Virus record (IMG/VR): IMGVR_UViG_3300009455_000007
Length of the DNA: 20,000 nucleotides
Origin: an uncultured virus (IMG/VR IMGVR_UViG_3300009455_000007)
Lineage: Duplodnaviria; Heunggongvirae; Uroviricota; Caudoviricetes
Direction: 5' to 3' (one strand)
The position numbers and the translations under genes were made by a program. The notes beneath the pieces were generated by a model that made no database searches, was not told the DNA's origin, and saw nothing but the letters and a program-made list of their open reading frames with translations. Positions 1 to 18,744 of this stretch are shown piece by piece; the first letter of the stretch is position 1; each line of letters starts with the position of its first letter.

Positions 1-295
1 CCGGGGCCCCGAATGCTGCCTTGAGCCGCTGCCAGAAGCCAGGGTCGTCCGCCAGGAGTTCGCGCAAGCGCTGGAACGTCCCTTCGTCCTTCGCCATGGC
101 TGCAGCGGCCTGGATGATGTACTGCTGTTCGTCGCCCTCGGTGCGGAGTTCATCGATCTTCAGTGTCGGCCGCGGCGCCGGCGTCGTCAGTGCCTGCACG
201 TTGGGCGGCGGCAATGGCTTCGGCTGCATTCCGGTACAGCTGCAGAGAAGCATCAGGAAGGGGGCGATCCAGATAAGCGCGGTAGGACGGTGCAT
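1..295 (-). CDS. o-spanin (Rz1-like outer-membrane lipoprotein), 3' end runs off the window
   Basis: Not in the ORF track; translated by hand from ATG at 295: MHRPTALIWIAPFLMLLCSC-TGMQPKPLPPPNVQALTTPAPRPTLKIDELRTEGDEQQYIIQAAAAMAKDEGTFQRLRELL... It has a signal peptide, a lipobox-like LCSC and a Pro-rich linker, and overlaps the 3' half of the i-spanin in another frame. Confidence 0.85.
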   Translation of the reverse strand, partial: MHRPTALIWIAPFLMLLCSCTGMQPKPLPPPNVQALTTPAPRPTLKIDELRTEGDEQQYIIQAAAAMAKDEGTFQRLRELLADDPGFWQRLKAAFGAP

Positions 296-533
296 TTCGG
301 GCTGCCTCTTGGTTCTTGGTTTGCGCGCGGCTGACACCGGCGTCGATGGCAGCCTGGTCGCGCATGTTGTCGGTGACCAGGCCATCGTACTTCTTGCCCT
401 GGTTCTGCAGGGTGGTCACCTGGCCCTTGACGTTGCGGAACTCCCACCATGCAGCCACGCGGCTGCGTGTGCTCCACCCAATCAGCAGGAGGATCACGGC
501 GAGGATAGTGATGCCCCACAGCTTCGGAGTCAT
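150..533 (-). CDS. i-spanin (Rz-like)
   Basis: C-terminal part of ORF 150..878. The likely start is MTPKLWGITILAVILLLIGW (ATG at 533, overlapping the endolysin stop). A single N-terminal TM is followed by an Ala/Gln-rich helical domain, directly downstream of the endolysin. Confidence 0.8.
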   Translation of the reverse strand: MTPKLWGITILAVILLLIGWSTRSRVAAWWEFRNVKGQVTTLQNQGKKYDGLVTDNMRDQAAIDAGVSRAQTKNQEAARNAPSYRAYLDRPLPDASLQLYRNAAEAIAAAQRAGTDDAGAAADTEDR

Positions 534-1201
534 GCGCGTGCGCGGATCATGATGTAGTCCGCCTCCTGGTTGCGGCGTGCGATCAGGCCCTTGCCTAGCT
601 TGGAGCCGCGCCAGATGCGCTCCATCTTCCGGATCTGGTTGGCCGTGCACGCGTGGTCGCGCGCGGGGAAGCACACGTCGCGGATGTGGCGCATCTCCAA
701 GCGGTCTTTGCCGACCATGTTCCCGCCGCGGTTGTAGACCAGGTCGAGGATCATGTCGATGACCGCCTGGTCCTGGTCCTGCAGCCCGGGGAACGACCGG
801 CGCGCGATGTTGTAGTAGCGGATCAGCGTCGGGTCGCGGAAGACCTGCATGGCCATGGGCAGCGGCGTGATGATCCACGCGCGGCGCTTGGCCAGGTTGC
901 CTGCCGACTGGCCCTTGAACCCAGACATGGCGGCGAGATAACCACGGTGCGGGTGCATGTGCCAGTCGGCCAGGATCCGCTCGACCGAGTTGTGGCCCAG
1001 GTCGTAGCCGATGCCGATCGTGACACCGGACGCGCTGTTGCCCGGCCAGATCGGCATCTGGTACCTGCGGGTGTACAGCTCCGGACCGCCGACCTCCCAG
1101 CGCGCGATGAATTTCTCGCCCGCCGGCGATACGACCGCCCGAGACTGCGCGGACGCGTAGCCGGAGAGGATCAGCAGCAGGAGGACGAAGAGGGCGCGCA
1201 T
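530..1201 (-). CDS. endolysin, lysozyme-fold muramidase (pesticin C-terminal/T4L-like) with an N-terminal signal peptide
   Basis: Motifs WE...SGVTIGIGYDLG, LVYNRG and C-terminal GLIARRNQEA are typical of lysozyme-like phage muramidases. The likely start MRALFVLLLLILSGYASA|Q resembles a Sec signal with an A-S-A cleavage site. Confidence 0.85.
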   Translation of the reverse strand: MRALFVLLLLILSGYASAQSRAVVSPAGEKFIARWEVGGPELYTRRYQMPIWPGNSASGVTIGIGYDLGHNSVERILADWHMHPHRGYLAAMSGFKGQSAGNLAKRRAWIITPLPMAMQVFRDPTLIRYYNIARRSFPGLQDQDQAVIDMILDLVYNRGGNMVGKDRLEMRHIRDVCFPARDHACTANQIRKMERIWRGSKLGKGLIARRNQEADYIMIRARA

Positions 1202-1611
1202 CAGCCGAAGACCACCCGGTACCAGAAGTAGAAGCACAGGGCCCACACGCCGATGTCGACCAGGCGCGTGTACAGCAGCAGCTCCTTCTGCTCGAACGAC
1301 ACCGAGGCCTCGATCATGTACCGGTGGGCCTCCACGATCTCCTCGGGGGCGAACACGTGGTCGTAGGTGCGCTTCGTCAGCCAGGAGCTGAAGCAGATGA
1401 TGATGCCGCCGACCAGGTTGACGATCATGGCGTTGAGCTGGCCCAGGCCGTCGATGCCGCTGGTCGGGTCGAGCTGCGGGAACAGCCAGCGGGTCAGGAA
1501 CACCATGCCGATCGCCGGCGGCAGCCAGAAGATGATCTCCTGGTATGCCTTGAGCAGGGCCTTGATGCGGTCCTTGTGGGCCTTGAGGAAATTGATGATC
1601 GGCTTCTTCAA
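1201..1611 (-). CDS. putative holin (3 predicted TM segments)
   Basis: Likely TTG start at 1611, with AGGAG upstream and a TTGA overlap with the upstream stop. Hydrophobic segments IIFWLPPAIGMVFLTRWLF, AMIVNLVGGIIICFSSWL and LVDIGVWALCFYFWYRVVFG; lies immediately upstream of the endolysin. Confidence 0.55.
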   Translation of the reverse strand: MKKPIINFLKAHKDRIKALLKAYQEIIFWLPPAIGMVFLTRWLFPQLDPTSGIDGLGQLNAMIVNLVGGIIICFSSWLTKRTYDHVFAPEEIVEAHRYMIEASVSFEQKELLLYTRLVDIGVWALCFYFWYRVVFG

Positions 1612-2306
1612 TGTGATTCTCCTACTACGTTGCGGCGGATGACCCCCACCCACTTCACGACTGGGCCGTTGTGCGCTTCGCGCACCGGCGTGGCCGAACA
1701 GATCACGTCGAACTCATGCCCGGCCACGTCGCGCATGCGGTAGTTCAGGACGAACTCGCGCATGTCCTCGATGCAGGACTCCCACTCGCGGCGCACCATG
1801 TCGCGGTCGGCGAAGACGATGGCGTTGATCCAGCCGGTGCCGCCGAGCTCCTTGTCGGAGCGGTTGGTCCATTTCTGGTACGTAGCGTTGGTATAGACGT
1901 GGTTGCCGTTGGCGTCGCACTCGAAGACCCCGAACATGCCCATGCCGTCCCACTGCGCGCGCGTGCTGTTGATGAAGAGGGTCAGGGCGACTTCGGTCCG
2001 CTTGGCGGTGTCCCTGGTGGTGTTGACTGCGTCGCGCAGCGAGCTCCCGCCGTTCGGCCGGACCTCGTGCAGAACCTGGCGCATGGTCTCGTCCATGCTG
2101 TTGAACTTCTGGATCATGGGGATGTAGTCGGGCAGGGCCGACAGGGCAGCGACGCCGCTGAAGAACCTACCGACCGACTTGGCTGCGCTGGTGATCAATG
2201 GCCATCCCCATTTCTTGAACCCAAGAGCCGTAAGTAGCGTGACGATCAAGAGCAGGAGCTCGCCGGCCGCACTCAACTTCGAAAACCATGCGGACATCGA
2301 GTCCAT
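1608..2306 (-). CDS. membrane protein with an NGGSSLRD motif and a C-terminal PAS domain
   Basis: N-terminal TM (LLLLIVTLLTALGF) and EVRPNGGSSLRDAV. The C-terminal ~105 aa follow the PAS/PAC pattern (GVFECDANGNHVYTNATYQKWTNRSDKELGGTGWINAIVFADRDMVRREW...YRMRDVAGHEFDVICSATPVRE..GPVVKWVGVIR). GGAGGG RBS upstream. Confidence 0.8.
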   Translation of the reverse strand: MDSMSAWFSKLSAAGELLLLIVTLLTALGFKKWGWPLITSAAKSVGRFFSGVAALSALPDYIPMIQKFNSMDETMRQVLHEVRPNGGSSLRDAVNTTRDTAKRTEVALTLFINSTRAQWDGMGMFGVFECDANGNHVYTNATYQKWTNRSDKELGGTGWINAIVFADRDMVRREWESCIEDMREFVLNYRMRDVAGHEFDVICSATPVREAHNGPVVKWVGVIRRNVVGESH

Positions 2307-2339
2307 GCTGTATCCCTCCCTTCGCCCCGTACCGGGGCA

Positions 2340-2996
2340 TTACCACGAGAACTGCATACCCCGATATTTGTGCTCGCGTTGTCCTTTCTCACCCTTGGCC
2401 ATGAAGCAGTACTGCTCGAACTCGGCTTTGTACTGCGTTGCCCGGCCGCGGTCGTACGTCTCGGCATCCGGCTTCATGTGCGCCAGGTAGCGCGCCCACT
2501 TGAGGATGGCGATGTGGTGCTGCTCGTCGATCTCCAGGTCCTGCCCCGAGCCTTCGATCTCCTCCAGCGGGAGCCGGTAGACGATCAGGCTGAGGGTGGC
2601 GTCCTCGGTCGGCGTGTTGATCACGCGGACCTGGTTCGGCTCCATGCCAACGACGAGCTTGTTCACGACGCCGGGGGTGTCGGTGAACAGGGGCAAGCCC
2701 TTGCTGTCGTCGAACTCCAGGTCCTCGAAGTTGACGATCTCGATCTTCTTGCCGTCGGCGTTGAACGCCGCGCGCAGCTTCAGTACGAGCGGAGACAGGG
2801 TCGCGAAGCGCTCGCCTGCCACCAGTTCCATGCGGGCGACTTCGCTGGTGGCGTCGGCGAGCCCACCGGTGAGGCGGCAGAACATCTTCTGCGCCTCATC
2901 GATGTACCTGTACAGCTCCGCGTCGCTCCAGAGGTACGTCTGTACCGTGTCCCGGAGGTCGAGGCGGAGCTGATCGAGCAGGTCGCCGCTTTCCAT
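2340..2996 (-). CDS. putative head-tail adaptor / head completion protein
   Basis: N-terminal L..LR.DL.D....YLWSDAEL.RYIDEAQ and C-terminal LEIDEQHH.AIL.WARYLAH..PD.ETYD pattern typical of podophage adaptor proteins; located downstream of the capsid genes. Confidence 0.6.
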   Translation of the reverse strand: MESGDLLDQLRLDLRDTVQTYLWSDAELYRYIDEAQKMFCRLTGGLADATSEVARMELVAGERFATLSPLVLKLRAAFNADGKKIEIVNFEDLEFDDSKGLPLFTDTPGVVNKLVVGMEPNQVRVINTPTEDATLSLIVYRLPLEEIEGSGQDLEIDEQHHIAILKWARYLAHMKPDAETYDRGRATQYKAEFEQYCFMAKGEKGQREHKYRGMQFSW

Positions 2997-3400
2997 CAGC
3001 TGTTCTTTTCGGCCTCGATGCGGTCAGCGCGGCGCTGCCAGGCCTTGGCGACATCCTTGGCCGACACCTTGAAACCGCACTCGCGGCTGACGGCGTCCGC
3101 CTTCGGCGAGCTGGCCGCGGTGAAATCGTCGACGTCGTTGCGCTCGACGATCGCCTCGATTGCGGCGTCGATGCGCGCCTCACGCTCGACCGGATCGATC
3201 GGCTCGTGGTTGCCTTCCTCGGCCGGCGCCGCCAGGCCCTCGCCGTCGACGAACTCGCCGCCGATCGCCAGGATCTCGCCGTAGAGCAGCGGCGGCACGC
3301 TGGTCGGCTCGCCCTTGATGAACCTGATCGAGTGGCCAAGCAGCGACGTATGGATGTAGGTCCGGTTGAGCTTCATCTTGCGGTTGGCCTTCTTCGCCAT
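2996..3400 (-). CDS. hypothetical protein, probably virion/head-associated
   Basis: 134-aa ORF with an AG-rich RBS, codon usage like its neighbours, and a stop overlapping the next start. Confidence 0.6.
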   Translation of the reverse strand: MAKKANRKMKLNRTYIHTSLLGHSIRFIKGEPTSVPPLLYGEILAIGGEFVDGEGLAAPAEEGNHEPIDPVEREARIDAAIEAIVERNDVDDFTAASSPKADAVSRECGFKVSAKDVAKAWQRRADRIEAEKNS

Positions 3401-3420
3401 TTCCTCTCTCCGTGGTTAGA

Positions 3421-3449
3421 GAAAAGGGGGCCTTGGAGGCCCCCTTTTC
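3421..3449 (-). terminator. rho-independent terminator after the capsid/decoration genes
   Basis: GAAAAGGGGGCC-TTGGA-GGCCCCCTTTTC: 12-bp inverted repeat with T runs on both strands. Confidence 0.75.
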
Positions 3450-3478
3450 CGTTGGGTCAACTACTCGTTTCCCCCGGA

Positions 3479-3940
3479 TTAGGCCGGGTTGACTTCCCGG
3501 CCACCGCGCCCGTCCTTCTTGTACAGGACGGTGATGCGGAACTTGCCGGCCGTCGCGTTGGCCGCCGTGGAGGCGATGGTCAGGCGGATCGGCGACCCGT
3601 CGGCGCTGCCCAGTGCCGAGGTCAGCAACAGAGCGTAGCGGGTGTTGTCCGCGGCCTTGAGGTCGGAGGCCGCCAGGTAGATCGCGTCCGAGGCCGCGGT
3701 ACCCAGCTTGACGGTGTACGCAGTCGGGCCGGCGCCCTGGTCTTCGACCACCAGGTGGCCGCCGAGGATCTCGGCGCCCACCGGCAGGTTGATCGCGTCC
3801 AGGATGAGGGCGTCGGTGTACACGGAGCCGAAGGTCTTGCTGGCGCCGGTGACCGAGTCGACCGCGGTGTCGTTGAATTTGAAGATGAATTCCGCGCAGA
3901 GGACGTCCTGCGAGGTGCGAGTTGCGGCGAGCAATGCCAT
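3479..3940 (-). CDS. putative capsid decoration/cement protein
   Basis: 153-aa Ala/Thr/Gly-rich, beta-type protein (AINLPVGAEILGGHLVV...) directly after the MCP and before the terminator. Confidence 0.55.
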   Translation of the reverse strand: MALLAATRTSQDVLCAEFIFKFNDTAVDSVTGASKTFGSVYTDALILDAINLPVGAEILGGHLVVEDQGAGPTAYTVKLGTAASDAIYLAASDLKAADNTRYALLLTSALGSADGSPIRLTIASTAANATAGKFRITVLYKKDGRGGREVNPA

Positions 3941-3952
3941 GATCGTTCTCCC

Positions 3953-5068
3953 TTACTGCGCGCAGTAGATCGACAGCACACCGAAGTCCTGCACGGTGTT
4001 CGCCGAGTAGATGCTGTTGAACCGCGGCTTCAGGAAGCCCAGGATCTTGGCCACGGAGATACCCTGCTGGTTCTCGTAGTCGAAGCCTTCTTCCACCCAC
4101 TCGGGGTTGCCGATGTCCGCCATCGCCAGCGCCTGGGCGCCGCAGAAGAGGACCTGGCAGCCGTCGACGAGGTTGCCGGCGCCCCACTTGCCCACGCCGC
4201 TGGTCGCGCCGGAGGTGTTGTAGACGTTGCGGTACTCGTGGATGTGCAGGCCGTCGACCTTGACGCTCGAGCCCGAGAACAGGGCGTTGTCGCTGCTGCG
4301 TGCCTGGGCGTGGCGCAGGTTCTGCATGTACATGTCGTCCAGCTTCAGCTTGGCCATGGCCTGCGGGGTCATGAAGACGTGGAACGTCTCCTCACCACCC
4401 TCGCCCTTCACGCCGCGCATGTACTGGTCCTTGGCGTACGCCTTGGCCTGCACCAGCATCTTCCACGACGGGGTGTCGTCAGCCTCAACCGAGGAGGTCG
4501 CGCCGTTGACGTCGAAGCGGGAGTTGGTGTTGTCCCAGCGCAGCTTGCGCTGGCTGGTCGGCGCGGTGACGTCGGCGGCGAACTCCAGGTCCGGCAGGCT
4601 CGAGCCGGTACGGGCGACGCCGTTGTTGCGCATGCTGTAGCTGACGCCCGACAGGGTCAGGAAGGCCAGCTGGTCCATGCGCTCGGCCAGCCAGTAGGCC
4701 AGGACGTCGCGGCTGTTGTTGCGGAACTCGACGATCGACTTCTGGTCGGCCATGCGGCCTTCGTGGCGGTTGGCGTGACGCATCTGGTCGATGCGGATCA
4801 CCTGGTCGTAGGCCTTCATCGCCTCCTCGTTGCCTTCGAGGGTGCGATCGCCCACGACGCCGTCACCTTCGAGGTCGGCGAGCAGGGTGATCACGGCTCG
4901 CGCGCCCTTCTCGGACTTCTTGAGCTCGGTGATCTGCTGGACGAGGGAGTTCGGGCCCTTGCCGAGGAACGGCTTCAGGAACGAGTAGTTGCGGGCCTGC
5001 TTCCACAGATCCATCGACCATACGGTCTTCTGTTCGGTGGTGAGCGCGGCAAAATTGGTCAGTGCCAT
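3953..5068 (-). CDS. major capsid protein, N4-gp56/DUF4043-like family
   Basis: MALTNFAALT..QKTVWS.DLWKQARN, L.GDGVVGDRTLEGNEE, IDQ.RHA, LFCGAQALAMADIG and EE.FDY.NQ.GIS motifs; 371 aa; follows the portal and scaffold; GGAGG RBS. Confidence 0.9.
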   Translation of the reverse strand: MALTNFAALTTEQKTVWSMDLWKQARNYSFLKPFLGKGPNSLVQQITELKKSEKGARAVITLLADLEGDGVVGDRTLEGNEEAMKAYDQVIRIDQMRHANRHEGRMADQKSIVEFRNNSRDVLAYWLAERMDQLAFLTLSGVSYSMRNNGVARTGSSLPDLEFAADVTAPTSQRKLRWDNTNSRFDVNGATSSVEADDTPSWKMLVQAKAYAKDQYMRGVKGEGGEETFHVFMTPQAMAKLKLDDMYMQNLRHAQARSSDNALFSGSSVKVDGLHIHEYRNVYNTSGATSGVGKWGAGNLVDGCQVLFCGAQALAMADIGNPEWVEEGFDYENQQGISVAKILGFLKPRFNSIYSANTVQDFGVLSIYCAQ

Positions 5069-11961: not shown

Positions 11962-12028
11962 GGGCGGGCATTCTTGCAGAATTTTTTGATTTTTTCAGAA
12001 AGTGCTTGACACGAAGAGGCCCGGGGGT

Positions 12029-12155
12029 ACTTCGGATCTAGAACTTTTTGTCTAGTTTCCAGGCAAAAACCGCGAAATTTTTGTATTTGCGGGGGCGCGA
12101 GGTCCTACCCCCTCGGCTCTCGAGGCACCCCCGACTTCGGATCTGGTTTCGGATC
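12029..12155. repeat. three TTCGGATC direct repeats in the divergent intergenic region
   Basis: ACTTCGGATCT at 12029-12039 and 12134-12144; TTCGGATC at 12148-12155. Confidence 0.6.
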
Positions 12156-12183
12156 CACGGAGTGCCTCGTGACGTGTGGGTAG

Positions 12184-12207
12184 AGCACGCTCGCAAGCTC
12201 GCGTTTG
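12184..12207 (+). promoter_or_regulatory. 24-bp element, copy 1 (AGCACGCTCGCAAGCTCGCGTTTG)
   Basis: Identical to 13999-14022; ends ~45 bp upstream of the first early gene. Confidence 0.6.
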
Positions 12208-12252
12208 TCCTTCGTTGAGTGAGCATCCCGCTCATCCAAACGGAGTATCGCA

Positions 12253-12471
12253 ATGCGTGAGTCCTCTGCCACCACGAATACCGCCGCCACCCTGTCCCCG
12301 TACGACACCGGCTATAACGCCGCCTTCGAGCCCTTCGCTGTTGCCGGTGCACAGACCTACGTCATCGCACGTGCCAGTGTTGCGCACCTCAAGCGTGGTA
12401 CCTCAGCCACCGCAGGCTTCAGCGTTGGCGCGTTCCACGGCTTCACCGCTGGTTGGAAGTCCGTCAAGTAA
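12253..12471 (+). CDS. hypothetical early protein
   Basis: 72-aa ORF with a GGAG RBS. Confidence 0.6.
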   Translation: MRESSATTNTAATLSPYDTGYNAAFEPFAVAGAQTYVIARASVAHLKRGTSATAGFSVGAFHGFTAGWKSVK

Positions 12472-12521
12472 TGCCCGCACCTCAACCCCGTTGTAGTAAC
12501 TCACCTATCTGGAGATTCGCC

Positions 12522-12869
12522 ATGACCAAGTCCCTCGACAAAATGACCAAGAGCGAACTGCTCGCCCACATCGCGTCGCAAGACGCCACCATCAAGGAAC
12601 AGTCCACGCGCCTCTGCGCCGCAGTGGGCAGCTACCGCGCGCTGCGCGACGAACGCGACACCATCGCCGACAAGCTTGCCGAGCTCGAAACGCGCCGCAA
12701 GTTCGAGAATCAGGCGTTCCGTTCCAAGCTCCGCGGCAAGAACGAGACCAAGCGCAGCAAGCGTGAGGACTGGGCCGCGTTGAGCCGCGAGTACTGCGCC
12801 AAGCACAACGTTTCGACCGTTTCCATGGCCAATCTGCGGGCGTACGCCGCAGCTAAGAACACCGCATGA
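12522..12869 (+). CDS. hypothetical coiled-coil early protein
   Basis: Likely start MTKSLDKMTKSELLAH after GGAG; part of ORF 12453..12869. Confidence 0.7.
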   Translation: MTKSLDKMTKSELLAHIASQDATIKEQSTRLCAAVGSYRALRDERDTIADKLAELETRRKFENQAFRSKLRGKNETKRSKREDWAALSREYCAKHNVSTVSMANLRAYAAAKNTA

Positions 12870-12988
12870 ACAGGCGCCGTTTCGTCCTGATCCTCATCGT
12901 TACAGCCCTACTTTCGGGGCTGTACGCCATCCAACCCGAGGAATGCAGGGGCTTCGGCCCCTCGTTCCCGTCCTACTGCAAGGACTGA
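12866..12988 (+). CDS. 40-aa single-pass membrane peptide with C-x10-C
   Basis: Hand-translated: MNRRRFVLILIVTALLSGLYAIQPEECRGFGPSFPSYCKD. It has an ATGA overlap upstream and ends 2 nt before the next ATG. Confidence 0.6.
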   Translation: MNRRRFVLILIVTALLSGLYAIQPEECRGFGPSFPSYCKD

Positions 12989-12990
12989 CC

Positions 12991-13194
12991 ATGCACAACA
13001 TCCTGCGTATCTTCGCTGGGCTCAGCCTCATCGCCATGATGCTGCTCAGCATCTTCAACACCTTCGGGGTGATGGGCCTCATTGGCTACCTCACCACCTC
13101 GCTCATCCTTATCTTCGACAAGATCACTGGCCGCAACAAAGCCAAGCGCGAAAGCGCTATGACTGACGGCACGTGGTGGAGGGACATCAAATGA
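12991..13194 (+). CDS. small membrane protein
   Basis: MHNILRIFAGLSLIAMMLLSIFNTFGVMGLIGYLTTSLILIF...; AAGGA RBS. Confidence 0.6.
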   Translation: MHNILRIFAGLSLIAMMLLSIFNTFGVMGLIGYLTTSLILIFDKITGRNKAKRESAMTDGTWWRDIK

Positions 13195-13406
13195 GCGGAG
13201 TCATCGACGATAGAGGAGTGCAGTGGGAACACTGCAGCCTCTGCCACAAGTTCGTACGCCTTACCAACCTAGGCTACGTCCCCCCACACATCCACCCACC
13301 TTACGGACAAGATATCTGCATGGAATGCACAAACATGCACCCGCAGATCGAATCCATCATTCCAGCAAAAAGCTGGATCGCTGAACGCGAAGGAGCACCG
13401 GCATGA
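13191..13406 (+). CDS. small zinc-finger-like protein
   Basis: MSGVIDDRGVQWEH-CSLC...CMEC (two CxxC motifs); GGAGGG RBS; ATGA overlap. Confidence 0.65.
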   Translation: MSGVIDDRGVQWEHCSLCHKFVRLTNLGYVPPHIHPPYGQDICMECTNMHPQIESIIPAKSWIAEREGAPA

Positions 13407-13549
13407 AAACCAAGCGCCTGCTGGAAATCATCGTTGTGCAGCTCGCCGCACAACGCCACAACGCCAAGGACCAAATCGAGCTGGCCATCATCGATGACCT
13501 CAAGCGCGAAGTTGAACAGCGCGAACAACAACTGGAAGCAATGACATGA
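13403..13549 (+). CDS. hypothetical 48-aa helical protein
   Basis: Hand-translated: MKTKRLLEIIVVQLAAQRHNAKDQIELAIIDDLKREVEQREQQLEAMT; AAGGAG RBS; ATGA overlaps at both ends. Confidence 0.6.
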   Translation: MKTKRLLEIIVVQLAAQRHNAKDQIELAIIDDLKREVEQREQQLEAMT

Positions 13550-13848
13550 TCATTGAATCCGGCATCATCATCTTCGCCGGCTTGTTGCTCCTCGCAATCA
13601 AGCTCCCACTCCGTACTAACCTCAAGCTGCTAGGGCGACCGCTCGCTGTCGACCTTACGGCATCCGTCGTTGCATACATCCTCCACTACGGCACCTTCAG
13701 CGGCATCATGGCCGCGGCCGTAGCTGGACTGATGACGTCAGGCTTCACTGCCTTTGCGCGCAAGGCAATAGGCCATATCGAACCCAAGACCGGAACGTAT
13801 ATCCCCGGCTGGTTCGACATGACTGCACGCTTGGAGCAAAAGTCATGA
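13546..13848 (+). CDS. membrane protein (2-3 TM)
   Basis: 100-aa hydrophobic ORF (…LH.GTFSGIMAAAVAGL…). Confidence 0.7.
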   Translation: MIIESGIIIFAGLLLLAIKLPLRTNLKLLGRPLAVDLTASVVAYILHYGTFSGIMAAAVAGLMTSGFTAFARKAIGHIEPKTGTYIPGWFDMTARLEQKS

Positions 13849-14000
13849 GCCCTGAAGAACAGTTCATGGAGTTCATAGACGACATGATCGCTACAAGCAA
13901 AAAAGAACGTAAGGCAGTAGCCGAACATCTGCGCGATATCGGCCAAATCGGGTTCTACAAAGAACTCGAATATGCCCCCTTCGATCAAACACTGCACTAG
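13845..14000 (+). CDS. hypothetical 51-aa protein
   Basis: Hand-translated: MSPEEQFMEFIDDMIATSKKERKAVAEHLRDIGQIGFYKELEYAPFDQTLH; GGAG RBS; ATGA overlap. Confidence 0.55.
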   Translation: MSPEEQFMEFIDDMIATSKKERKAVAEHLRDIGQIGFYKELEYAPFDQTLH

Positions 14001-14022
14001 CACGCTCGCAAGCTCGCGTTTG
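13999..14022 (+). promoter_or_regulatory. 24-bp element, copy 2
   Basis: Identical to 12184-12207; ends ~45 bp upstream of the ATG at 14067. Confidence 0.6.
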
Positions 14023-14066
14023 CCCATCTGATTTCGTTCACTCATCCAGTTCTTGGAGAACTCACC

Positions 14067-14291
14067 ATGCGTATCAAGTGCTCGATCAACAACTCTTCGA
14101 TGCAGATCATCAACGATGACGGCACGGTCGCTTTCGACTATGCGGTCAAGGAGATTTCCGTCGAAGGCGACATCAACGCCCTCTTCGCCCTCGGTGAAGA
14201 GATTGGCAAGACGATGGCGCAACAAGCTGCTGCCCAAGGCTTCGACGTGCAAAAGGCGCTCGAAGAAGTGGGCAAGGCAACCAAGCAGTAA
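14067..14291 (+). CDS. hypothetical protein
   Basis: 74-aa ORF with a GGAG RBS. Confidence 0.65.
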   Translation: MRIKCSINNSSMQIINDDGTVAFDYAVKEISVEGDINALFALGEEIGKTMAQQAAAQGFDVQKALEEVGKATKQ

Positions 14292-14429
14292 GCGGTGTGG
14301 CCTGCGACCGTGCTAACCCAAACGCAAGGCTTGGGATCGACGCCCCGTAGGAGCAACAACAAAAGACAAACAGGGCGCCCGCCGGACGATGTGCCCCCGG
14401 CACCACCGTTGTAGGAACAAGGAACTACG

Positions 14430-14618
14430 ATGCCACGCATCGATGACGATACAAGCACGCCGTTGGTCTTCACGTCCAACACGCAGTGGCTTGAAGAGAT
14501 CGACAGCAGAAGAAGCTTATCTCCCGAGGAAATGCTCACCGTCCTCGAGGAGATGCTGGAACAGGGTGAGCTAACCCACGAAGAACTACTCACATACCTG
14601 CAAGACCTCAGGAGTTAA
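14430..14618 (+). CDS. hypothetical acidic protein
   Basis: 62-aa ORF with an AAGGAA RBS; Glu/Leu-rich. Confidence 0.55.
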   Translation: MPRIDDDTSTPLVFTSNTQWLEEIDSRRSLSPEEMLTVLEEMLEQGELTHEELLTYLQDLRS

Positions 14619-14622
14619 TACC

Positions 14623-15549
14623 ATGTCCAAGAACATCACCAAGACGACCGAAGCGGCCACCACCAACCCCATCATCGCCGCCGCTCCGGCTCCCATCCAC
14701 ACCAAGAAGTACGCCAACATCACCGACCTGCTCGAAGAGCTGGATCGGCGCAGTCAGTTGGCAGGGCTGAAGAGCCTTGCCGGCGCGGTGCAGTTCACGA
14801 TGATCAACACCGCGGACTGGATCGTGCGGCAGCAGATGAAGGGTATCGCCAGCGAGTCCCCGACGCTGGACGAGCGCAACATCGCGGACGAATGGACGCG
14901 TGGCCAGGATGCGGTGGATCTGATGTCCGCCGAGTTCGGCAACGAACCGCAGCAGAAGCCCGAGGACAAGCTCAAGCAGTACAGCCACATCTACTACGGC
15001 CTCGTGGACAAGATCCGCACCCTCAACCCCGCTCCGTATGAGCGGCCTCGTTCGCTGATCGACACCCTCGCGGAGTTCACCCCGCGCGGCGTCGGCCTCA
15101 GCGAAGAAGCGATGAAGCTGCTCGAAGCGGCTGAGTCGGAACCGGGCGAGTTCCTCAAGGCTCGCGAGGAGAACAAGGCGCGGAAGGAAGCAGACATGAA
15201 GGAGCGCAAGCCCCAGATCGTCCAGATCCTGAACCTCAACGCGGACTGCATGCCCCTGATCGACACGATCGAGGAACTGCCGAAGCACGTCCAGTTGCGC
15301 CTCGCCACCGCCGCGTGGAAGGGCGTGTACTTCAGCCGGAAGCAGTTGGTGACCTACATCGCCACCTACAACAAGCTGGACGACGTGGCCGCCGTGGTGG
15401 CCATGGCCGAAGACCTGAAGAAGATCGAGGAGTACTGCAACAACTTCGAGCTGGAGCACAGCCAGTTGTTCGACATGCTGGAAGAAGCTGGACTGAAGGT
15501 CTACGGCATCGCCGACGCGAAGGTCGACGTCAAGAAGCCGCGTAGCTAA
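14623..15549 (+). CDS. hypothetical alpha-helical protein (308 aa)
   Basis: Long ORF with strong GC3 bias and an AGGAG RBS, followed by a palindrome/terminator. No family recognised. Confidence 0.8.
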   Translation: MSKNITKTTEAATTNPIIAAAPAPIHTKKYANITDLLEELDRRSQLAGLKSLAGAVQFTMINTADWIVRQQMKGIASESPTLDERNIADEWTRGQDAVDLMSAEFGNEPQQKPEDKLKQYSHIYYGLVDKIRTLNPAPYERPRSLIDTLAEFTPRGVGLSEEAMKLLEAAESEPGEFLKAREENKARKEADMKERKPQIVQILNLNADCMPLIDTIEELPKHVQLRLATAAWKGVYFSRKQLVTYIATYNKLDDVAAVVAMAEDLKKIEEYCNNFELEHSQLFDMLEEAGLKVYGIADAKVDVKKPRS

Positions 15550-15564
15550 GCAGTAGCTACATCG

Positions 15565-15594
15565 CTAGCCCCTCCTAGGAGGGGCTAGTGTTTT
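15565..15594 (+). terminator. perfect 24-bp palindrome followed by TGTTTT, probable terminator
   Basis: CTAGCCCCTCCT|AGGAGGGGCTAG at 15565-15588, then TGTTTT. Confidence 0.65.
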
Positions 15595-15615
15595 CAAGAC
15601 CTGGAACTCACAGGC

Positions 15616-15819
15616 ATGGAATGGAAACACCCTGAAGCGGTCATGCGTTTGCGCATCCAGAACAAGCCTGTGATCTGCTGGAACTGCGGCGAGTTCATAC
15701 CCAGCGAGATTGCTGAGCGCCATTGGTGCAAAAAAAGGAACTCCTGCCCAGCCACCGACAAAGAAAAATCCTGGCAATACATCTGTGAAGAATTCAATGA
15801 CCGCCTGGAAGCACCCTGA
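15616..15819 (+). CDS. small Cys-rich protein, paralog A
   Basis: WKHPEAVMRLRI...CWNC...WC...CP..DK...CEEF. Confidence 0.65.
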   Translation: MEWKHPEAVMRLRIQNKPVICWNCGEFIPSEIAERHWCKKRNSCPATDKEKSWQYICEEFNDRLEAP

Positions 15820-15991
15820 AGCCATCATGCGCCAACGGATCCTGGGCCGGGGGGTCAACTGCCACTGGTGCATGTACCACAGAGATGGCGCGCTTCCGGA
15901 GGATTGGTGCTCTGAGCGAACCCACGACCCATGTCCCGATAAAGACATGAATGAAACGACCTGCGAGGAGTTTTACCCCTGGCAAAACTAG
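15797..15991 (+). CDS. small Cys-rich protein, paralog B
   Basis: From ATG at 15797: MTAWKHPEAIMRQRI...CHWC...WC...CPDK...CEEF. Confidence 0.65.
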   Translation: MTAWKHPEAIMRQRILGRGVNCHWCMYHRDGALPEDWCSERTHDPCPDKDMNETTCEEFYPWQN

Positions 15992-16410
15992 CCACCTAAC
16001 GAAATTACGCTTTTTTGCCCGAATCCTTACCTTTACTACAAATACTTTTTTCTTCTTACTCTCTTTTTTTCTTTTTCCACAACAAACTTCTTCGTTTTTA
16101 AAGTGTAAGGAATGTAAGACTCTTATTCTATATAGCTTTCCGCCTTGCACCCCCCTCTCAAACCTCCCCTGTTTCTCGAAGTCCTCTCATTCCGTGTTTC
16201 CGCCGATTCCGAAAATTCATTCAGCTGAAAGTCAGCTTTGTGATTTATTCGTTATTAACCTTTTTCTAACAACAGCTCATTTCCTAACGAAATCAGCCAC
16301 TCCTAACACTTTGAAAACCCGGTTCTGACGAAATTACGCGCCCTTGCCGACCCCCCTGTCTGCGAAGCACACTGGCCCTCCGCTGCACCACCAACCAGGA
16401 CCCCCGCACC
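15992..16410. other. AT-rich non-coding region, probable replication origin
   Basis: Long T/pyrimidine tracts and repeated CT(A/G)ACGAAAT motifs immediately upstream of the primase-helicase gene. Confidence 0.5.
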
Positions 16411-18744
16411 ATGGATCTGTTCTTCCTTGAGGCTGACCAGCCAATCACCAAGCGCTACAGCCTCAACACCGACGGATCCCTGACCAAGCACCCCTACCCC
16501 TTCGTCTACCAGGTCACCTCCCACCAGGAGGCCTGTCCTGACCTGCAGACCTTCGAGCAGCTGATCCTCAAACACGCCAAGCTGGGCCACACCCTGGTCA
16601 AGGGCGCCCTCACCAGGCCCCTGATCAACGAGTCCCGCGCTGGGACTATCGACCCTGAGGCACCTACCTCCTGGATCTGCCTGGACCTGGACGGCATCGA
16701 CCAGTTCCAGTCAGTCGACCTGTTCCTGGAGGCCATCGGCTGCCACGACGTGGATTACGTGCTCCAGTGGTCATCGAGCATGGGCGTGGAGAACAAGAGC
16801 GGGTTCAGGTGCCATATCTTCATGCTCCTGCGCCGCCCAGCACACCCCCAGATGCTCAAGCACTGGCTCCAGAACCTGAACCTGACTGTCCCCGCCCTCA
16901 AGACCCAGCTCACTCTCACCAAGACCTACAACAGCCTGCGCTGGCCCCTGGACATCACCACCTGCCAGAACGACAAGCTGCTGTACATCGCCCCGCCCAA
17001 GTTCGGCAAGGGGCTGAAGGACCCATACCCGGGCAACAACCGCATCAGCCTGCACATCAAATCGGCACGTAGCCTCGTGCTGCCCCCAATCACCCCGACC
17101 AAGGAGGCCATCCGCGAAGTAACCACAAGAACCGTCAACGATCTGCGTGTGGCGGGTGGGCTCCCCAAGCGCAAAACCACCCGCCACAAGTTCGAAGGCG
17201 CGATCGAGTACATGGCCAACCCCGACTCGGCCGTGATCACCGAAACCAAGACCGAGCGCGGCTTCGTGTACTTCAACCTCAACGGCGGCGACTCGTGGGC
17301 GTACTACCACCCCGAAGACAACGCCAACTTCATCTTCAACTTCAAAGGCGAACCCAACTACCGCACTCAAGACCTGCTGCCCGAGTACTGGGCCAAGGTC
17401 AGTGCCCGCACCACCAACTACCAGGCCGACGCCTCTGGCGACATCTACCTGGCGTTCCGCGACTTCAACTCAGGCCAATACTGGAACGGCATCTACAACG
17501 CCTTCGAAGACGACCTGCGCCTGGCGCCGGCCAAGAGCGAAAGCCAGCTCCGCCACTTCATGAAGCAGCATGACCAGTTCCTGGGCGACTTCATTCCCGA
17601 CTGGGACATGTGCTTCGACCCGCAAGACATGACCGTGGTCGACCCGGTCAACCGCAAACTCAACACCTTCAGGCCGAGCGAGTACTTCAAGCTCACCAAC
17701 CCAGCTCCCGTCGCCGCCCTGCCACCCACCATCTACAAAGTGATGGACCACGCCCTGGGCAACGATGCACCCACGCTCGACCACTTCCTGAACTGGCTGG
17801 CGGTCATCGTCCAAACCCTGGACCGCACCAACACCGCTTGGGTACTGCATGGCACGCAAGGCACGGGCAAAGGCCTGATGTTCCACAACATCCTCGCGCC
17901 GCTGTTCGGACAGTGGAACACCACCGCCAAACGCATGGAAGAACTCGAGAGCGACTTCACCGGCTACCTCAAGGACTGCTTTTTGATGTTCGCCGACGAA
18001 GTCGAAGCAGGCAAAAGCCTGTACCACTCCAAGATCGCTGCACGGCTGAAGAACCTCCTGGTCGAGCCGATGATCAGCATCCGCGAGATGTACCGCCCGC
18101 CGTACATGCACCGCAACCGCATCAACATGATCTTCGCTAGCAACAAAAATGCACCGGTGGAAGTCGACCCCGACGACCGGCGCTTCAACGTGGCACCGCG
18201 GCAGGAAACACCACTGCAGATCACGCTCGAGGAGATCGACAAGATCAACGACGAGCTGCCAGCACTGTATGCCTACCTCAAGAACTACCCGATGGACCTG
18301 ACCCGCGCTCGCACGCCGCTCAACAACAGCGCGCGCAAGCTGCTCATCGACACCAACCAACTGGCTGTAGACGGCGCCATCCAAGCCGTCGTGACCGGCG
18401 ATATTGCCAGCCTGTGGGACTACCTGCCCGCCCAAGTCCCCCTGCTGGGCTCACTGGGCCTGCGGCAGAACGCCTACGACAATTTCCGGCGCGTGCTCCT
18501 GGACCACGTCCAGAACATGCCTGCCAATATGAGCCGCGACGAGCTGCATGCCATCCTGGAATGGTGCGTCGGCGGCATGCCTGCAAGCCCCAACAAATTC
18601 GCTTCCTTCCTCGGCCACCACCGCCTGCAGCTCAAGTCCGTGTGGCGCCACAACCGCACCGTGCGCGGCATCAACGTGGCATGGGTGGCCGACCCAGTCT
18701 GGCACGCCAATGCACTCGCTGAAATCGCAGCAGGTACCGTCTGA
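16411..18744 (+). CDS. primase-helicase (N-terminal AEP/prim-pol-like domain, C-terminal SF3/DUF5906-type helicase)
   Basis: AEP-like motifs ICLDLDG and SSS...RCHIF; Walker A GTQGTGKG, Walker B MFADE, motif C IFASN, and DDRRF. Confidence 0.85.
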   Translation: MDLFFLEADQPITKRYSLNTDGSLTKHPYPFVYQVTSHQEACPDLQTFEQLILKHAKLGHTLVKGALTRPLINESRAGTIDPEAPTSWICLDLDGIDQFQSVDLFLEAIGCHDVDYVLQWSSSMGVENKSGFRCHIFMLLRRPAHPQMLKHWLQNLNLTVPALKTQLTLTKTYNSLRWPLDITTCQNDKLLYIAPPKFGKGLKDPYPGNNRISLHIKSARSLVLPPITPTKEAIREVTTRTVNDLRVAGGLPKRKTTRHKFEGAIEYMANPDSAVITETKTERGFVYFNLNGGDSWAYYHPEDNANFIFNFKGEPNYRTQDLLPEYWAKVSARTTNYQADASGDIYLAFRDFNSGQYWNGIYNAFEDDLRLAPAKSESQLRHFMKQHDQFLGDFIPDWDMCFDPQDMTVVDPVNRKLNTFRPSEYFKLTNPAPVAALPPTIYKVMDHALGNDAPTLDHFLNWLAVIVQTLDRTNTAWVLHGTQGTGKGLMFHNILAPLFGQWNTTAKRMEELESDFTGYLKDCFLMFADEVEAGKSLYHSKIAARLKNLLVEPMISIREMYRPPYMHRNRINMIFASNKNAPVEVDPDDRRFNVAPRQETPLQITLEEIDKINDELPALYAYLKNYPMDLTRARTPLNNSARKLLIDTNQLAVDGAIQAVVTGDIASLWDYLPAQVPLLGSLGLRQNAYDNFRRVLLDHVQNMPANMSRDELHAILEWCVGGMPASPNKFASFLGHHRLQLKSVWRHNRTVRGINVAWVADPVWHANALAEIAAGTV

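Follow-up and report, generated by a model that had tools for sequence, protein, structure and literature searches.

A PAS-bearing accessory membrane protein in the lysis cassette of an uncultured podophage belongs to a large unannotated phage family

What does a sensor-type PAS domain do when it is borne by a membrane protein whose gene opens a phage lysis cassette? The question is raised by the gene at positions 1608..2306 (minus strand) of a 20,000-nucleotide (nt) stretch from the uncultured-virus record IMGVR_UViG_3300009455_000007. The whole stretch is called the window here, and it is a piece of a podophage related to the Pseudomonas phages KPP25 and phiR18 (capsid 64% identical). Lysis timing sets the burst size and the fitness of a phage; its known regulators (dual-start antiholins, T4 RI/RIII and P1 LydB) are few and lineage-specific, and to our knowledge none of them has a classical sensor domain. 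An earlier reading of the window, referred to as the original prediction, had proposed a holin- or antiholin-like protein whose oligomerisation is gated by a sensed signal. The analysis reported here identifies, in the lysis cassette, an accessory membrane protein with a PAS domain that belongs to a large family so far without annotation, and assigns a probability of roughly one half to the reading that this protein is a partner or regulator of the holin step.

The gene encodes a protein of 232 amino acids (aa), named the PAS protein below, and runs from an ATG at 2306, with GGGAGGG located 8 nt upstream, to a TGA at 1610-1608. A transmembrane helix with the N-terminus outside and the C-terminus inside is predicted at residues ~11-32 (2211..2276, minus strand) from the hydropathy window and the family-wide positive-inside rule. 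The single hydrophobic 19-residue window covers residues 11-29 (mean Kyte-Doolittle 2.0), and the helix is followed by the basic flank FKKWGWP...K..R. A second transmembrane helix at residues ~46-63 was considered and rejected, its hydropathy peak of 1.06 being too weak and the segment too short. The turn motif that defines the family, E81-V94 (E-V-R-P-N-G-G-S-S-L-R-D-A-V; 2025..2066, minus strand), was located between two predicted helices by alignments, by phrog_9869 and by the structural model; residues 79-94 read HEVRPNGGSSLRDAV. Behind a long helix (residues 90-122) comes a complete PAS domain at residues ~122-225 (1632..1943, minus strand), identified by Pfam, model and Foldseek, and the open reading frame (ORF) ends right after it with no output domain behind. 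Longer fused relatives were absent from 354 candidates of 407-2000 aa, which is weak evidence.

The PAS assignment was obtained from sequence profiles and from structure. Pfam PAS_3 (PF08447) matched residues 137-223 with an E value of 1.9e-10 and 41.3 bits against a gathering score of 25.6, spanning profile positions 2-89 of 89, and weaker matches to PAS_9, PAS_4 and PAS were observed on the same protein. An AlphaFold2 model built on 26 homologues showed five strands (126-131, 135-139, 185-192, 198-209 and 216-225) with helices between them, four helices in all, over residues 125-225 at a predicted local distance difference test score (pLDDT) of ~80-93. Upstream, the model places a helix at 58-81, a break at the motif and then the long helix 90-122 leading to the PAS domain, with lower confidence (pLDDT 55-69 for the N-terminal helices and < 50 for the motif). 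The top Foldseek matches were solved PAS/LOV domains, led by 3lyx (E 1.8e-8, target-normalised TM-score 0.81) and including the PAS domains of NifL (2gj3) and Aer (8dik) and short LOV proteins at target-normalised TM-scores of 0.7-0.87; sequence identity to these structural matches was 13-24%. The membrane helix, the motif and the complete PAS domain without an output domain, all named in the original prediction, were thus confirmed by hydropathy, Pfam, AlphaFold2 and Foldseek, and the C-terminus does model as PAS.

A word-indexed search retrieved 32 homologues of 188-242 aa, all with a PAS domain, and the architecture is kept in them down to 24% identity, indicating that the feature is not a chance one. 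E81, G86, S89, R91, D92 and V94 are invariant across the 32. The closest homologues (P0002-P0014) are 48-74% identical, and a cluster look-up supplied no names for close homologues. The nearest record (G001) carries an identical PAS gene at its very end and so gives no sequence beyond it. Across 50,697 deposited phage genomes, tblastn with the full-length PAS protein gave no match at E ≤ 1e-3. The protein starts with M-D-S-M, so that two in-frame ATGs stand three codons apart (2295-2306, minus strand), recalling dual-start holin/antiholin genes; the arrangement is probably incidental because the second methionine is missing in the close homologues P0002-P0004. The LOV flavin-adduct cysteine motif is G-x-N-C-R-F-L-Q (NCRFL), and LOV-type photochemistry was rejected because this motif is missing from the 232-aa sequence. 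The conserved residues of the PAS part were indistinguishable from the generic PAS_3 pattern.

As a description of the DNA, it also holds that the PAS gene heads, and is translationally coupled to, a cassette of holin candidate, endolysin and spanins. Its TGA overlaps the TTG start (1611-1609, preceded by GGAG) of a holin candidate of 136 aa with three hydrophobic helices (1201..1611, minus strand; an alternative GTG is located at 1653). Then come, all on the minus strand, an endolysin of 223 aa of the lysozyme/pesticin muramidase type (530..1201), an i-spanin candidate of 127 aa with an N-terminal transmembrane helix (150..533) and an o-spanin candidate with a lipobox-like LLCSC (2..295), which begins inside the i-spanin gene in another frame and runs off the window. 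The junctions read TTGA between PAS gene and holin candidate, TGATG between holin candidate and endolysin, and ATGA between the endolysin stop and the i-spanin gene. The holin candidate matched no PHROG, Pfam or NCBIfam family, and its Atlas scores of 0.85-0.86 were below the useful range. For the endolysin, the Pfam Pesticin match (E 0.0095) was below the cut-off; Atlas features scored 0.92-0.95, structural TM-scores to Phage_lysozyme/Pesticin clusters were 0.78-0.85, and a 72%-identical orthologue matches the endolysin family phrog_7910 (3.6e-6) and Phage_lysozyme (9e-4). Sequence and profile searches of the endolysin against the PDB returned nothing meaningful, and its AlphaFold2 model was poor (pLDDT 48, from a 4-row alignment). 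The endolysin N-terminus carries a hydrophobic segment, MRALFVLLLLILSGYASA, resembling a signal peptide or a signal-anchor-release (SAR) segment; with its richness in leucine and its A-S-A site, it is closer in appearance to a cleavable signal peptide than to a SAR segment. The o-spanin candidate matched phrog_456 Rz-like spanin (6.9e-4), LysC (E 0.066) and P2_Rz1 (0.057).

Upstream of the PAS gene, after a 33-nt gap, lies a head-tail adaptor gene (SU10_adaptor; 2340..2996, minus strand), and the same strand holds the small and large terminase, portal, scaffold-like and capsid genes. No sigma-70-like promoter was found in window positions 1-4200, including the region ahead of the PAS gene, and a hairpin in the 33-nt gap was no stabler than shuffled sequences (z 0.10); transcription of the cassette therefore probably continues from the late structural genes ahead of it.

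The P-N-G-G-S-S-L-R-D turn is not confined to PAS-bearing proteins. A motif scan of viral contigs gave 504 pattern matches and from these 175 relatives, of which the best 80 loci were analysed; they comprised long PAS forms (185-280 aa), few intermediates and many proteins of 72 aa. The 72-aa form consists of a membrane helix, KPNGGSSLRD and one charged helix, and accounts for 3,491 clusters at 90% identity, all unnamed and many on ~40-kb contigs. In a motif-core alignment of 82 diverse sequences N-G-G-x-S-L-R-D was invariant, and the profile built from it retrieved 3,226 clusters at 50% identity (E ≤ 1e-3). The window protein has the N-terminal helix and the N-G-G-[SG]-S-L-R-D turn of this family, represented by phrog_9869. 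Judged by these alignments, the motif defines a large and uncharacterised phage family. The domain scan took the best 150 of the 3,226 clusters, 69 of them ≥ 161 aa, and left 64 shorter ones unscanned. A PAS-clan match was found in 63 of the 68 long representatives scanned and in none of 17 mid-size representatives (116-150 aa), the short forms of the family spanning ~70-150 aa. PAS was the only recurrent added domain seen. Since 63 of 68 long representatives carry it, helix-elbow-PAS is, by the domain matches, the dominant long architecture of a big family, and the PAS fusion of the window is not a one-off.

Family members are found in ~21 deposited phage genomes, which are those of actinophages (mu1/6, TurkishDelight, P1312, and Arthrobacter and Glutamicibacter phages) except for two unannotated Caudovirales records; in 185,579 species-representative genomes only 10 family loci were found. 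In actinobacterial and actinophage members the stretch from membrane helix to PNGG turn contains a further conserved sequence, DDW-x-G-E-x-x-R-P-G-V-x-A-R-P-G-V-M-E-R (L057, L085, L087, L088, L090, L158, L163, L167, L173 at 3902-4177 and L175 at 2863-3306), and several of these lie in Streptomyces, Amycolatopsis and Actinosynnema genomes, presumably as prophages. Three further proteins of 269-280 aa (L022, L041 and L044) have ~195 residues past the motif and a motif without proline (K/Q-N-G-G-S-S-L-R-D); their tblastn match was confined to the PAS part.

The orientation of the protein in the membrane bears on what it could sense. A clear hydrophobic window ahead of the motif was present in 101 of 130 unique family proteins, and in 96 of these 101 the C-terminal flank was richer in lysine and arginine (mean 3.5 against 0.6 on the N-terminal flank). 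By the positive-inside rule, the N-terminus is predicted to be outside and the motif, the following helix and the PAS domain to be cytoplasmic. Any signal would therefore be intracellular or at the inner membrane face and not directly environmental, and on this point the original prediction, which had spoken of environment- or metabolism-responsive lysis timing, needs correction as regards the environment.

Linkage to lysis genes was analysed in a synteny sample of 44 of the 80 viral loci, from which near-duplicates and L043, L050 and L052 were left out. PHROGs were run on three downstream genes (130 proteins) and two upstream genes (81 proteins); Pfam, run on 87 neighbour proteins, added almost nothing beyond them. 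The short forms had an endolysin within two genes downstream in 7 of 7 loci, with a two-helix protein (phrog_25359) between in 5 of 7. The gene order at one 72-aa locus (L060, 4920-5138) and at ~25 similar loci is fixed: a minor-tail-like 370-aa gene, a 71- or 204-aa gene, the 72-aa gene, the two-helix phrog_25359 gene, a CHAP/NlpC-like endolysin and a small one-helix gene. Among cultured phages, the genes for endolysin (gp50) and holin (gp51) of Streptomyces phage mu1/6 precede that of gp52 (91 aa, HPNSGSSLRD), with an overlap of 4 bases, the member in Thermobifida phage P1312 overlaps the amidase gene, and gp72 of Arthrobacter Laroyevirus is labelled a holin in RefSeq; the actinophage members match phrog_15431 'holin' with E values of 1e-6 to 1e-14. 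The original prediction had placed the NGGSS[LM]RD motif in small membrane proteins encoded next to lysis genes of phages, and this was borne out by the 72-aa forms and by mu1/6 gp52.

Among the longer forms, a lysis gene is annotated downstream of L003, L004 (a three-helix holin of the gene transfer agent type), L009, L049, L055 and L056, and upstream of L005 (spanin), L023 (endolysin) and L057 (endolysin and holin), and a GH19-like endolysin lies ~900 nt downstream of the family gene of L016. The partner endolysins are of unrelated types, namely lysozyme, CHAP/NlpC-like, GH19-like and amidase. The whole cassette is kept in L003, L082 and L092, with identities of 50% for the PAS protein, 49% for the three-helix protein, 72% for the lysin and 40% for the i-spanin, and a head-closure gene comes after it. 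L082 is a 12-kb contig binned to a Propionibacteriaceae metagenome-assembled genome (MAG), with a KPP25-like adaptor, the PAS-holin-lysin-spanin cassette and Hc3 genes. Spanins are typical of Gram-negative hosts, and L082 is probably a phage contig mis-binned into an actinobacterial MAG.

An annotation-free test was made on 82 representative loci, with small multi-helix proteins defined as those of 50-170 aa with at least two hydrophobic helices. With genes called on the same strand, greedily by length, and helices called by a hydropathy threshold, such a protein was encoded immediately downstream of the family gene in 10 of 74 loci; the background, taken from genes over three positions away, was 12 of 534 (Fisher p = 7.7e-5, odds ratio 6.8), and the other offsets gave 1-2 of 54-78. 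A conserved two-helix protein of 125-139 aa lies between the family gene and a CHAP-like endolysin in L049 (5467-5886), L055 (5376-5753) and L056 (3929-4336). It has the segments SFNK...TFTAL and GAGFGLKGYLGA and no PHROG match, and is a likely holin family. The ORF caller had missed this gene, so that the enrichment is if anything understated.

The cassette position and these neighbours argue for the holin-step reading, as do the predicted topology, the prevalence of PAS among the long forms and the precedent of Mu releasin gp25 and LysF1b, which are lysis proteins with one N-out/C-in helix and a cytoplasmic domain. The following points weigh against it. An annotated lysis gene was found within two genes upstream or 3-4 downstream in only 10 of 37 longer forms, and the linkage to lysis genes, although real, is partial. 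At least 11 of the 37 stand in other contexts, such as head-closure/virion genes, tail fibres, PhoH/thymidylate synthase, DNA polymerase, terminase, integrase and major capsid/adaptor genes, and most other neighbours of longer forms carry no annotation. The enrichment statistics inherit the crudeness of the gene caller and helix threshold, and the 'holin' labels on relatives are annotations and not experiments. The PAS protein of the window matches no lysis-annotated PHROG: its only match is phrog_9869 (function unknown), over 28 residues (73-100), and no PHROG labelled holin was matched at E ≤ 0.01. KPP25, the nearest cultured relative, carries no family gene, although the same slot, between adaptor and head-closure genes, contains a complete lysis cassette; lysis in that lineage therefore does not require the PAS protein. 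In the PAS domain neither a cofactor nor a ligand signature was recognised, and the domain may consequently serve for dimerisation only.

With these points counted, the holin-step reading keeps a probability of about 0.5, and its proposed mechanism is as follows. The PAS protein would be a bitopic inner-membrane protein, encoded by the leading gene of a late lysis cassette whose genes overlap, with a short N-terminal tail outside, one membrane helix and the rest in the cytoplasm in the order of basic linker, helix-turn-helix 'elbow' (P-N-G-G-S-S-L-R-D), long helix and PAS domain. The core of membrane helix, basic linker, helix, P-N-G-G / S-x-x-D turn and helix is present in every member and is on that ground taken as the working part. 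Its turn may combine a helix C-cap with a following N-capping box and so form a fixed elbow, a region where the model is unconfident. Through its membrane helix and elbow region, the protein would bind the holin-like protein encoded next to it and act as a co-holin or as an antiholin, a class for which no sequence definition exists. In PAS-bearing members, the helix that leaves the elbow would run straight into the PAS domain, by analogy with the flanking helices of dimeric PAS sensors, and because no output domain lies downstream, a PAS-driven change can only go back towards the membrane helix. The PAS domain might set the dimer or oligomer state of the complex with the holin-like protein, possibly in answer to an intracellular ligand or redox state, and might in this way tune when the membrane lesion forms. 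Contact with the holin, an effect on lysis timing and any sensed signal are thus what we infer. The partners are non-homologous, with different holin-like proteins and at least four types of endolysin, and the hosts include both envelope types, which speaks for an action on the cytoplasmic and not on the outer membrane.

Of the alternatives, the best survivor is a non-lysis accessory membrane protein in a variable slot, for example one acting in superinfection exclusion or one that disturbs host PAS-based signalling through heterodimerisation. The slot is indeed variable: between adaptor and head-closure (Hc3) genes this phage group is mosaic, with L005 and L006 arranged differently again. In KPP25 (L172, 9772-11530) the slot is filled by two multi-helix proteins, spanins and a GH19-type endolysin, and in the window by the PAS gene, an unrelated three-helix protein, a lysozyme-type endolysin and spanins. 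The absence of the gene from KPP25 and the many family members away from recognisable lysis genes fit such a role, and PAS domains commonly heterodimerise. Against it stand the position-specific enrichment beside holin-like genes, the start/stop overlaps with lysis genes in unrelated lineages and the recurrence of the family beside non-homologous endolysins and in hosts with different envelopes, and we regard this explanation as unlikely.

Somewhat less likely again is that the PAS protein is itself the hole-forming holin and that the downstream three-helix protein is a second holin or the antiholin of the first. One membrane helix and a gene position beside lysis genes would suit a holin, and the short relatives resemble textbook small holins (one helix, a charged C-terminal tail and 72 aa). 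The phrog_15431 matches of the actinophage members point the same way, and no further small multi-helix gene separates the family gene of L009 from the gene of a SAR-like endolysin directly behind it. A precedent is LysF1b, a single-helix N-out/C-in protein that is the most needed for lysis in F1-cluster mycobacteriophages, according to the available part of the preprint (bioRxiv 10.64898/2025.12.04.692442). However, homology to LysF1b was not detected in an indirect test (no mycobacteriophage match at E ≤ 1), known holins do not resemble a 232-aa protein that contains a folded PAS domain, the family gene usually has a dedicated multi-helix holin-like gene as its neighbour, and in mu1/6 the holin label belongs to gp51 and not to the family member gp52.

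A releasin-like helper that promotes release or activation of a membrane-anchored or secreted endolysin, as Mu gp25 does for SAR endolysins, is improbable: the PAS protein has the releasin layout given in the available part of PMC9239132 (one N-terminal helix, predicted N-out/C-in, and an endolysin within five genes, here the second one downstream), thus sharing gross architecture and predicted topology with gp25, and the endolysins of the window, L003, L009 and L049 begin with a hydrophobic segment, but no DUF2730 (PF10805) match was present among its Pfam matches at E ≤ 1, the partner endolysins of the short forms, L016, L023, L055, L056 and L057 lack an N-terminal helix, and the segment of the window endolysin looks, as noted, more like a signal peptide than SAR.

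The holin-step reading would have a bold extension, namely signal-gated lysis timing in thousands of phage lineages, in which the PAS domain binds a metabolite or redox cofactor, the elbow relays the change and the neighbouring holin is held or released, so that the moment of lysis would be tied to the energetic or metabolic state of the infected cell; we consider it doubtful. What makes the gene of interest is the joining of a sensor-type domain with the membrane protein that heads a lysis cassette, a fusion that is the dominant long form in a family of > 3,000 clusters. Should the PAS protein govern the holin, host physiology could be read by phages in a general manner at the last step of infection, and a compact, portable, signal-responsive lysis switch would become available for engineering. 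Even without sensing, the family would be a common and so far unannotated component of lysis cassettes in Gram-negative and Gram-positive hosts, and the abundant 72-aa protein of ~40-kb phage contigs, known only from environmental sequence, would receive a name.

Several other features of the window were recorded. A strong GC hairpin at ~3418-3450 (GGGGGCC, 5-nt loop, GGCCCCC), flanked by A-runs and T-runs, sits between the genes 3479-3940 and 2996-3400 and resembles a bidirectional intrinsic terminator; it was seen by eye and is absent from the list of the consensus scan. The 153-aa ORF at 3479-3940 (minus strand), right after the major capsid gene, matches both a virion-structural PHROG and phrog_20969, labelled 'Rz-like spanin' (3.8e-7). 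No membrane helix is visible by eye and the KPP25 counterpart is annotated as structural; the PHROG is probably misannotated as a spanin. A 777-aa primase-like protein at 16411-18744 (plus strand), divergent from the structural and lysis genes, matches phrog_24712 (1.5e-195) and DNA primase PHROGs (1e-23), and positions 12000-16400 hold many ORFs without a family.

Among known systems, true sequence relatives of the N-terminal module (helix, cytoplasmic helices and P-N-x-G-[GS]-S-[LI]-[RK]-D) are mu1/6 gp52, P1312_040 and Laroyevirus gp72, whose genes lie beside or overlap holin and endolysin genes as does the window gene. Unlike the window protein, they are of 91-159 aa and have no PAS domain, and the actinophage relatives carry the extra DDW-G-E-x-x-R-P-G-V segment that it lacks. 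No tested function for the actinophage relatives was found in the literature searched, and neither searches that combined PAS with holins, antiholins, lysis cassettes or the timing of lysis nor those on the lysis genes of mu1/6 yielded a description of such a protein (subscription journals not covered).

T4 holin T and its antiholins RI/RIII share the concept of a single-helix lysis protein with a globular domain through which a signal, that of lysis inhibition, delays lysis. T is oriented the other way round, the globular domain lying on the outer side of the membrane, according to the available part of the preprint cited above (bioRxiv 10.64898/2025.12.04.692442); the PAS protein has no match to Pfam Phage_holin_T, and its predicted orientation is opposite to the N-in/C-out one of T. 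Mu releasin gp25 is a single-helix N-out/C-in cytoplasmic protein encoded near the endolysin, and its family pairs with SAR and cytoplasmic endolysins, as given in the accessible text of PMC9239132. It has neither PAS nor PNGGSSLRD and belongs to a holin-less system, whereas the window has a holin candidate. LysF1b is described, in the same part of the preprint (bioRxiv 10.64898/2025.12.04.692442), as having a helical cytoplasmic domain behind its single N-out/C-in helix and a translational overlap with the two-helix LysF1a, both proteins being needed for normal lysis timing. It differs from the window protein in its length of 124 aa, in the absence of PAS from what is described there and in gene order, the two-helix gene coming first, and homology was checked indirectly only.

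Aer-type and 'short' PAS/LOV proteins share with the PAS protein the PAS fold, a flanking helix and the absence of an enzymatic output; their identity to it is the 13-24% given above, and it lacks the LOV cysteine motif. For the phage protein VqmA, a small-molecule signal influences the time of host lysis. VqmA of vibriophage VP882 is likewise a phage-encoded PAS-domain protein, as stated in the available part of PMC8284805, but it is a soluble DNA-binding transcription factor, whereas the window protein is a membrane protein of the lysis cassette. None of the systems compared joins a PAS domain to a lysis-cassette membrane protein, and it is this combination, recurring within a large unannotated family, that the window adds to them.

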